Of a DNA stretch of 64,000 nucleotides, positions 12,001 to 15,000 are shown piece after piece (the stretch's first letter is position 1; the number at the start of each line of letters is the position of its first letter). This DNA is from Escherichia coli. Lineage in GTDB: Bacteria > Pseudomonadota > Gammaproteobacteria > Enterobacterales > Enterobacteriaceae. The stretch is taken from NCBI RefSeq assembly GCF_024223415.1, contig NZ_CP100500.1, one strand, 5' to 3'. A program made the position numbers.

Positions 12001-15000
12001 CAGCACGACGCCCCATAACCGCATAAGTAAGCCAACGTTGCTCATTGTCGGTTTTTGCATGACGGGTAGTACCGCAGTCACGGTGTTTTCGGTAAATAAT
12101 TGCTGGCGGGCCATAATGACGATAATAAAACCAAAGGTATAACCGAGATTCTCCAGCAAGAAGCTGCCCGGCACACCTTCCAGTTCGACATGAAATATCC
12201 CTTTTGCCAGTAATGAAGCGCCCATCGACAGACCCGCCGCAATGGCTGACCACAGTAGTGCCATTGCGTCGCGTTCCAGCTCTTTTTCACCATCCTGGCG
12301 GATATGCTCATGAATTGCCATCGCCCGGGAGGGGAGTCGATCTTCATCTATTTCTATTTTTTTGCCACGCTCTTTTTCTTCGCTCTCAACTTCAATTTCG
12401 TCGCTGTGTTGATCAATTTTGTCGTTGTCCATGGTCTCTTCTCTTGAATTAGCACGTATAGCTAAAGCGTAGCGGCTTTTTTGCTCGCAACTGGCGGGAG
12501 TTACTCTGAAAATGTAGAAAAGGCCGCGTTTGCCTTTTTCTGTTTCCATAGAATCAAGTAGCCTACAGGGCGGCGATTACCAGGCTATGATCAAATCAGC
12601 AAATCAGGGCGTCTGGACATCAGTTGACGTGCTGTTACAATCGCCCACACCTAAACAGGCGGATACGGTATCGTTCCGTCATGGATGGCAAACTGCATAA
12701 GCCATAAAAAAACAGGGAGACATTTATGAAGCTTCGCCTGTCGGCGCTTGCTCTGGGAACTACGCTTCTGGTGGGGTGTGCGAGTTCCGGTACAGATCAG
12801 CAAGGGCGTTCTGACCCGTTAGAAGGGTTCAACCGCACCATGTACAACTTCAACTTCAACGTACTAGACCCGTATATTGTTCGACCGGTCGCTGTCGCCT
12901 GGCGTGATTATGTTCCGCAACCGGCGCGTAACGGTTTGAGCAACTTTACCGGCAACCTTGAAGAACCCGCGGTGATGGTGAACTACTTCTTGCAGGGCGA
13001 CCCTTATCAGGGGATGGTCCACTTTACCCGCTTTTTCCTGAACACCATTTTGGGGATGGGTGGTTTTATTGATGTTGCAGGGATGGCGAACCCGAAACTG
13101 CAACGGACTGAACCTCACCGCTTCGGTAGTACGCTTGGTCATTATGGCGTGGGTTATGGCCCGTACGTTCAATTACCGTTCTACGGTAGCTTCACGCTGC
13201 GTGATGACGGTGGTGATATGGCGGATGGTCTTTACCCGGTTCTTTCCTGGTTGACCTGGCCGATGTCTGTGGGTAAATGGACGCTTGAAGGTATCGAAAC
13301 CCGCGCACAGCTGCTGGATTCCGACGGTCTGCTGCGTCAGTCGTCCGATCCTTACATTATGGTGCGCGAAGCGTACTTCCAGCGTCATGATTTCATCGCT
13401 AATGGCGGCGAACTCAAACCGCAGGAAAATCCGAACGCGCAAGCGATTCAGGATGATTTAAAAGATATCGATTCTGAATAAGAAACAAATAAAAAAGGTG
13501 AGTCGCAAAACTCACCTTTTTTGTTGTTATCCCTCAATTACCACAAGTAAAAGGAGATAAACCGACAATGACCCGGACGTAATGATGTAAAAATACTGAT
13601 GTTCGTCATTGACTATTTCAGATATTCAGTCGTTGAAAAATCAAAAAACTGGAAAAATAATTTTAAATATCATCAAAATTAACACCTAACGCAGATAGTT
13701 GATTAATTTCATTTTGATATTCCGTCTGGCAATTTTGAAGCCTTTCTTCAATTTTACCTTCGATTTTCTTATAGTGCACATATATATTTTGAGAATGGTC
13801 AGTGTTAACTTCGTTATCGAATAAAGTAGAAACTATTTCTTTTACATTATTGCGTCTATATTTTGCATTGTCCACTTGAAAATTATATCTTATTGCTCGA
13901 CCATAACGTTTAAAAACTTCGTTTGGTTCTTTCAGTCTTTCCCCGTTGAGTTCGTTTACAACTTGATGATTTATACCTGTTGCAAATAATTCTGCCATGA
14001 GAGCTTTATTGCTTTCAAATGACGCTGAAGCATTCCTGGCGTTTTCACTACAATATTGTGTGAGACTATCACCATTAATACGAATTCCTCTTTTAATGTG
14101 GTAGTTGTCCTGATCGTAGTAACCGAGAGATAAATAATCGTTTCCGTTTGTATTTTTAATTACAATGGCGAGAGTGTTGTATTTTTTATCTTTACCGTGC
14201 CAGGTAAATAAGTCCGTTGGTTTGCTTATCCCGTTCTCATCGGATTTCGTTACCGTATGTATGAGGTTACGTGATATTTTATCGAAAATGAAATCAGGAT
14301 CTCCATTATATATTTCTTTTATTGCGCTGAAGATCATTTTCTTGTTATTGATATCATGAGTATTCTCTACTACATTTTCATTGATGAGGGTTTGGCCGAG
14401 TTTTTTGTTTTCATCGTTCGTAGGTGATTTTATTGGTTCTTGATTTTCAATATCAATATCAATATCAATATCAAAAGTAATATCGTCTGTATCATTGGAG
14501 TCAATGCCAATATCACTACGATCATCAATACCACTAACAATAATACCATCAGTAAATTCAGCATTATTTATATCATCATGAGTCTTCTCAACTATGTTGT
14601 CATTAATGATAGTACGGACGAGTTCTTTGTCTTTATAACTCGCAGGTAATTTTATTGGTTCTTGGTTGTCGATACCAATAGTAATATGGTCTGTATCATT
14701 GGAATCAATATTAATATAAGTAACTGAAGAATTATTGATATTTATTCTATCAGGATCGTCGTTTCCTCGTATGGCGTTTTGTATAAGCTCAAGTAGATGT
14801 TTAGTACAGGTGCTTATTCCTTCCTTACCATTAAAAAGGTTTTTGAACTCTTGTACTAATCCATTAACTTCATCATTGTTATTTTCATTGATGGATTCTG
14901 GGTAAGCTGCGCTGGTATTGTTGATTGAAATAGATGGTAGCATGATTTTATTCCATTTTGATTGATTTGTTACAAATATATATTACCTAATGAAATAGAC

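Follow-up and report, generated by a model that had tools for sequence, protein, structure and literature searches.

Does a short tandem repeat inside an Escherichia coli gene change its length between strains and, if so, by what process and with what consequence for the protein? The question arises from a stretch of 64,000 nucleotides (nt) of the E. coli contig NZ_CP100500.1 (RefSeq assembly GCF_024223415.1), the whole of which we call the window. In this window the gene yfdF, which is known as icaT in Shigella flexneri, contains a perfect hexanucleotide array, and in this study the number of its units was found to differ between strains. We consider it likely that the array is a coding microsatellite, that is, a variable-number tandem repeat (VNTR), whose units change by a slippage-type process and whose length variation is near-neutral in a weakly constrained and silenced gene.

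The array is located at positions 14447-14474, where the plus strand reads TCAATATCAATATCAATATCAATATCAA, a perfect 28-nt run of period 6. The first-pass annotation, made from the sequence of the window alone, had placed (CAATAT)x4.5 at 14448-14474 within yfdF and had read it as an alternating Asp-Ile tract. The coordinates and the unit were found to be correct by reading of the sequence and by Tandem Repeats Finder (TRF), and the assignment to yfdF holds on the basis of the minus-strand open reading frame (ORF) at 13663-14943, its fadL and mlaA neighbours and the annotated K-12 ortholog. TRF gives the array a period of 6, 4.7 copies, 100% matches and zero indels. On the coding strand (minus), the array is (GATATT)x4+GA at nt 472-497 of the gene. 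Its translation, DIDIDIDI, corresponds to residues 158-165 of YfdF, in the context SNDTDDITFDIDIDIDIENQEPIK (SNDTDDITF-DIDIDIDI-ENQEPIK). The segment holding the array lies between TCCAATGATACAGAC and AATCAAGAACC.

Among periods of 1-11 nt, the array is the longest perfect run in the window, being 28 nt long against 19 nt or less for each of the other periods. In first-order Markov simulations, comprising 2000 runs of the gene with its own AT-rich composition and 200 runs of the window, the maximum for period 6 was 17 nt. Other short-unit arrays were not found by TRF over the whole window. The array is perfect, arranged head-to-tail and far beyond chance expectation.

Among loci retrieved from complete genomes of E. 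coli, the number of perfect units (n) at this one site was 0, 1, 2, 3, 4, 5, 6, 7, 9 or 11. No unit is present in FDAARGOS_1277, where TTTGAT is followed directly by AATCAA, and one unit is present in E300010. Two units were found in NCTC10444 and O169:H41 F6326-C1; three in B19695, O145:H28 RM13514 and Res13-Lact-PER13-34; four in the window, LH10-b-1, CFSAN061763 and O145:H28 RM13516; five in ABW_A19 and MRSN346647; six in DSM 103246 and strain 4621; and seven, nine and eleven in isolate AF39, TUM1886 and TUM13936, respectively. The flanks are conserved and the units are perfect in all of them. Thus the number of units is not invariant among E. coli strains. It had been proposed that such a repeat gives length variation of the protein rather than on/off switching; indeed, all ten lengths are in frame, and every change is a multiple of 6 nt that alters the length of the protein and keeps the frame. 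The same series, TFD, TFDIE, TFDIDIE and so on up to TFDIDIDIDIDIE, is found among protein cluster representatives of a database of 5.8 billion sequences.

The frequency of each length was estimated in an approximate census from the spans of megablast matches, using synthetic queries of n=1, 3, 5 and 9 with 100-nt flanks. The counts are lower bounds or estimates, taken from the best 60 matches of each search together with identity bands; when a query is far from the target in n, the alignment is split in two, which inflates the band of 99% identity or more. Counted in this way, n=0 occurs in several hundred genomes, n=1 in one and n=2 in eight. The three-unit array occurs in at least about 60 genomes among the matches listed, and in roughly 155 by identity-band subtraction. 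At least 32 genomes have n=4, about 10-12 have n=5 and 11 have n=6; n=7 was found in two genomes, and n=9 and n=11 in one each. TUM13936, the strain with n=11, is also the only one in which IS200C and IS4 lie between yfdF and mlaA (6199-8197 of its fetched locus, L012).

How the units change can be seen in closely related strains. A single GATATT unit is all that separates ABW_A19 (n=5), from waste water in Switzerland, and DSM 103246 (n=6), from a chicken carcass in Germany, over the 40,230 nt around the locus. Two O145:H28 strains, RM13514 (n=3), whose lineage caused a lettuce outbreak in the US, and RM13516 (n=4), whose lineage caused an ice-cream outbreak in Belgium, are nine single-nucleotide polymorphisms and one unit apart over 18.1 kb. 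Strains from the same outbreak or source agree in n: RM13514 and RM12581 have n=3, RM13516 and RM12761 have n=4, and HCP5S3_I2 and LCP30S3_I5 have n=6. In addition, there are two classes of flank, one like that of the window and the other marked by a 3-nt deletion 39 nt downstream, and each of them occurs with n=3, 4, 5 and 6. Whole units are gained and lost locally and recurrently. These comparisons fit a rate at which unit change outpaces point substitution in tens of kb of flanking DNA, yet is stable on outbreak time scales and is not hypermutable. The slippage-type origin that the first-pass annotation had suggested is favoured over allele exchange by the 40,230-nt-identical pair and the O145:H28 pair, and slipped-strand mispairing is most likely the molecular mechanism. 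As for the folding of the array DNA, the n=4 array forms a weak hairpin (-1.6 kcal/mol, z -0.3) and the n=11 array a modest one (-5.6 kcal/mol, z -2.8). Promotion of slippage by hairpins was set aside because the n=4 DNA folds weakly.

The location of the array within the protein suggests where it came from. The N-terminal half of the protein is composed of two diverged copies of an internal module, which were recognized by self-alignment (score of 150 for the protein) and align over 177 columns with a nucleotide identity of about 71%. Module 1 (residues 77-127; 14563-14715, minus strand) consists of INIDSNDTDHIT and IGIDNQEPIKLPASYKDKELVRTIINDNIVEKTHDDINN, separated by a six-column gap, and is without the hexamer array. 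Module 2 (residues 145-200; 14344-14511, minus strand) is IGIDSNDTDDITFDIDIDIDIENQEPIKSPTNDENKKLGQTLINENVVENTH-DINN and bears the array; compared with module 1, it has no other large insertion. In the alignment, HIT, a gap of six columns and IGIDNQEPIK of module 1 stand against DITFDIDIDIDIENQEPIK of module 2. The single-unit allele of E300010 (locus L017), which reads TFDIENQ, is colinear with TIGIDNQ of module 1; therefore, GATATTGA is a plausible proto-repeat.

Alignment with the K-12 allele of yfdF showed that a 222-nt (74-residue) segment, 14362-14583 on the minus strand of the window, is missing from it. The end points of this segment fall in ACTCATGAT, which is common to both modules, so that its exact position is ambiguous. 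The K-12 allele is 1059 nt long and encodes 352 residues, with one hybrid module and zero array, and megablast hits of K-12 type consist of two pieces that span 1059 nt. The yfdF gene of S. flexneri is also listed at 1059 nt, and is known here by this length alone (PMC9769918 Table S2). Two-module alleles are present in about 1270 of 5426 complete E. coli genomes, and alleles of the K-12 type have one module. A previous study mentions that phylogroups D and E have an "internal addition", but neither the repeat nor its variation in copy number is described there (PMC9241512). This internal addition is the diverged second copy of the internal module, an indel hot spot. In two-module alleles of the O157 type, the array site is occupied by GATATTGATATTGAT (DIDID), whereas some cluster representatives read DID (DID against D), and a third class of two-module alleles has TSGIY. 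The linker between the modules is another indel hot spot, with differences of 3, 9 and 12 nt among alleles. As a separate observation, two RefSeq genomes both named ATCC 8739 carry different alleles, a single-module allele of 1059 nt in one and a two-module allele with n=5 in the other (NZ_CP033020.1 and NZ_CP043852.1); since their chromosomes also differ in size, 4.74 versus 4.80 Mb, one of the labels is probably wrong.

These findings are probably best explained by the following course of events. After an old duplication of the internal module, GATATTGA in the second copy would have served as the proto-repeat from which a perfect (GATATT)n array expanded. The array would then gain and lose whole units, most likely through slipped-strand mispairing during replication. 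Because the unit equals two codons, each change would add or remove Asp-Ile pairs and the frame would never be shifted. Given weak constraint on yfdF and its silencing, the resulting variation in protein length would most likely be near-neutral drift and not a tuned function.

The last step depends on the nature of the host gene. The coding sequence at 13663-14943 (minus strand) is an intact two-module allele of 426 codons, assigned from its ORF, orthologs and synteny. Its neighbours are mlaA/vacJ (12726-13481, plus strand) and fadL (15308-16654, minus strand). The K-12 ortholog in the same place is annotated as "yfdF: protein YfdF", and two-module alleles like that of the window are labelled "hypothetical protein" in RefSeq. 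Outside the extra module, the gene is 90.6% identical to K-12 yfdF at the nucleotide level, and the proteins share 84% amino acid identity. A megablast search with the window gene found an ortholog in 4294 of the 5426 genomes, always on the chromosome, and about 1100 genomes gave no yfdF match; identity of 99% or more to the window allele was seen in only 11 genomes.

yfdF is the icaT (gem1) gene of S. flexneri, an AT-rich gene silenced by H-NS (PMC9241512, PMC9769918). Activation of icaT depends on MxiE and IpgC of the Shigella virulence plasmid and takes place through a MxiE box (PMC9769918, PMC9241512), and the first 20 residues of the IcaT protein are the signal for its type III secretion in Shigella (PMC9241512). 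E. coli without the virulence plasmid has no MxiE or IpgC and silences yfdF via H-NS (PMC9769918). It has also been suggested that icaT is a "fossil gene", and a C-terminal truncation in phylogroup E was reported (PMC9241512). In the window, a MxiE box, TGAGCGTTTTTTGATAG, is located at 15000-15016 (minus strand) as a single exact match, with zero expected by chance. It is the same as the experimentally validated box of S. flexneri yfdF, and both are 73 nt from the ATG (PMC9769918 Table S2). The MxiE consensus of plasmid genes, GTATCGTTTTTTTANAG, has no match within two mismatches in the window; chromosomal MxiE boxes are also known to depart from the plasmid consensus (PMC9769918). By its position, sequence and MxiE box, the window gene belongs to yfdF/icaT. 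The gene and its promoter are in an AT-rich islet at 13500-15100, with a GC content of 0.31-0.37 against about 0.46-0.52 in the flanks (0.327 for yfdF itself and 0.502 for the window), which agrees with the published H-NS-silenced region (PMC9769918). Codons 1-20 (14884-14943, minus strand) encode MLPSISINNTSAAYPESINE, which aligns with the secretion signal region of Shigella IcaT (PMC9241512); among the aligned alleles, 11 of the 20 residues are invariant and six more are nearly invariant. Type III secretion itself was demonstrated for the Shigella protein only (PMC9241512).

Scans of the 426-residue protein against Pfam and NCBIfam gave zero hits above threshold, and when 1.84 billion representatives were searched exhaustively with phmmer, only YfdF and fragments of YfdF were matched, so that neither a distant family nor a function follows from the sequence. 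The homology to transposases from which the name IcaT originates was not reproduced, as no transposase match was obtained with Pfam, NCBIfam or phmmer. Judging from these searches, the YfdF family is an orphan restricted to E. coli and Shigella. An AlphaFold2 model was made from 26 alleles, but its mean predicted local distance difference test score (pLDDT) was 36, and about 23-30 across the tract, and we judged it unusable.

The constraint on yfdF is weak. Pairwise ratios of nonsynonymous to synonymous substitution rates (dN/dS) among yfdF alleles are mostly 0.5-1.0 (range 0.32-1.16), against 0.13-0.14 for fadL. A premature stop or frameshift was found in four alleles, L005, L006, L016 and L017. 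Stops shorten the product to 343-349 residues in L005 (301-1332; O157-type strain 10671), L006 (301-1341) and L017 (630-1679), and these stops are located away from the array; L016 (630-1909) has a 1-nt frameshift near the array. The truncations are consistent with gene decay and with the C-terminal truncation in phylogroup E. Because dN/dS is high, truncations are frequent, the gene is silenced by H-NS and the secreted Shigella gene has the length of the K-12 allele without the tract, the variation in array length is probably near-neutral.

Several points weigh against this interpretation. The census is approximate and is not an extraction from every genome. An interrupted allele, DIDIGIDI, is kept in several genomes, which shows an effect of point mutation on the tract as well. 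Unequal recombination between units would give the same pattern as slippage. Furthermore, yfdF is among the candidate positively selected genes of one published scan (P=0.041; PMC3882776), and the ORF is intact in many alleles, including that of the window.

The last two points would be expected if (DI)n served in a secreted protein as a functional part of tunable length, such as an amphipathic β-strand or an acidic metal-binding spacer, and if selection maintained the diversity of copy number to vary activity or antigenicity, as it does for the variable repeats of virulence proteins that are secreted or exposed on the surface. Secretion of Shigella IcaT through its first 20 residues, together with the conservation in the window of these residues and of the validated MxiE box, would fit such a role, as would the many alleles between n=1 and n=11 whose ORF is intact. 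The alternation of hydrophobic with acidic residues suits an amphipathic strand, and HITIGI, which corresponds to the tract in module 1, was modelled as a strand, though with a pLDDT of only 55-66. However, the low pLDDT across the tract makes the model too poor for any structural role to be read from it. If the S. flexneri gene that was studied resembles the K-12 allele without the second module, as its listed length indicates, neither expression nor secretion needs the tract. Silencing by H-NS without MxiE and IpgC means that length variants are rarely exposed to selection (PMC9769918), and the dN/dS values and frequent truncations indicate relaxed constraint. We therefore regard adaptive tuning of the tract as unlikely. 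A fuller version of this idea is slightly less likely still; it holds that (Asp-Ile)n is a selected, length-tunable strand or spacer of an ancient type III-secreted protein, with an effect of its length on folding, secretion or engagement of a host target once the gene is de-silenced, and that the diversity in E. coli of the phylogroup D/E type is functional; separately, the array could be a new high-resolution typing marker for lineages such as O145:H28.

Near-neutral change of units at the site has also to be weighed against the idea that the lengths are old and stable, and that strains differ because whole yfdF alleles were imported by homologous recombination. The alleles of yfdF are highly diverged (83-97% identity) and mosaic, and the types of flank differ, for example by the 3-nt deletion that marks one class. 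The fadL alleles are very divergent (synonymous divergence, dS, about 1.1), which indicates that recombination acts at the locus. Strains labelled O169:H41 with different n (n=2 and n=3) are unrelated across the region, with 2449 mismatches in 18 kb, and this pair was for the same reason rejected as evidence of rate. However, two haplotypes that are otherwise identical over 40 kb carry n=5 and n=6; import of alleles cannot explain that pair, and this largely refutes it as the sole mechanism. Alleles with n=3, 4, 5 and 6 share identical 100-nt flanks on either side, and the series of n inside each flank class requires repeated local changes. Import as the explanation of the length differences is consequently improbable, more so than either form of adaptive tuning. 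As to fadL itself, the window gene differs from those of AF39 (L011 2925-4265) and TUM13936 (L012 2924-4264) at about 23% of nucleotides (nonsynonymous divergence, dN, 0.147), whereas dS in the adjacent yfdF is only about 0.12 between the window and AF39. This suggests ancient allelic dimorphism or import at fadL, an outer-membrane and phage-receptor gene.

Errors of sequencing or assembly are a very improbable source of the differences in copy number, even in an AT-rich stretch of low complexity: some assemblies do come from indel-prone long reads and L016 has its frameshift nearby, but every difference is an exact multiple of 6 nt made of perfect units, arrays of 66 nt or less lie well inside single reads, independent isolates of one outbreak or clone agree in n, and the same series is found in independent protein collections.

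The yfdF array can be compared with the hexanucleotide VNTRs used for multiple-locus VNTR analysis (MLVA) of E. coli, such as CVN014, CVN015, CVN016, CVN017, O157-3, O157-9 and O157-17. Like them, it is a short perfect chromosomal array of 6-bp units that changes by whole-unit steps between strains and within sequence types and is usable for typing (PMC3407997, PMC8143711, PMC10062581). Unlike them, it is limited to genomes with the two-module allele, about 1270 of 5426. None of the 20 primers of a generic MLVA scheme (CVN001-017 and CCR001; PMC8143711) maps in the window, and 29 primers of a scheme for Shiga toxin-producing E. coli (PMC10062581, S5 Table) gave no match either there or at the loci of the O145 and O157 types. 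The loci tested from the latter scheme were EH26-7, EH111-8, EH111-11, EH111-14, EH157-12, EHC-1, EHC-2, EHC-5, EHC-6, O157-10, O157-17, O157-34 and O157-36; O157-3, O157-9, O157-19, O157-25 and O157-37 were left out. In total, 24 published E. coli MLVA loci were tested by primer mapping, and zero of them lie at the yfdF array. The array is a genuine polymorphic in-frame VNTR and apparently undescribed.

Contingency loci of Haemophilus and Neisseria resemble yfdF in having a simple repeat, presumably changing by slippage, in a gene linked to host interaction. Unlike in those loci, the yfdF unit is a multiple of three inside the ORF, and frameshift switching is absent. A phase-variable on/off locus was rejected because all ten lengths keep the frame. 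The Ser-Asp repeats of the ClfA and Sdr proteins of Staphylococcus aureus are also an in-frame dipeptide tract that contains Asp and varies in length between strains. They are tens to hundreds of residues long, are glycosylated and have a demonstrated spacer function. (DI)n is thus similar in kind; the Ser-Asp tracts are much longer and the sequences are unrelated. K-12 YfdF and S. flexneri IcaT share with the window gene the fadL-mlaA locus, the AT-rich islet and, largely, the N-terminal 20 residues, whereas K-12 YfdF is without the 74-residue second module and the array.

In E. coli, a species poor in long simple repeats, the yfdF array is a clear-cut case of an in-frame hexanucleotide VNTR. 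Since it separates close lineages, namely the two O145:H28 lineages and the 40-kb-identical pair, it could join typing schemes for two-module strains. The description of icaT/yfdF is refined by the module duplication, by the indel hot spot and by the K-12 allele lacking the second copy and the tract, all of which go beyond the first-pass annotation, as do the identity of the gene with icaT, its weak constraint and its frequent truncation. Otherwise, the array behaves as a microsatellite would be expected to when the gene around it is silenced and under weak constraint, and there is no sign of a new mechanism.

Two further observations were made outside yfdF. Downstream of yfdC, O145:H28 RM13514 has a large insertion that includes an LPD38-domain protein, a bacteriocin and Hok/Gef (L020 18290-26689), where RM13516 has tRNA-Arg (argW; L021 18149-18223). 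The integrative element at argW thus differs between these two outbreak lineages. In the window, the strongest tandem array by far is located at 47036-47395, where a 91-bp unit is present in 4.0 copies with 97% identity (TRF score 671). Its consensus is GC-rich, contains TGCCTGATGCGACGCT- and GCCGGATAAGGCGT-like motifs and looks like an intergenic cluster of the repetitive extragenic palindrome/bacterial interspersed mosaic element (REP/BIME) type.

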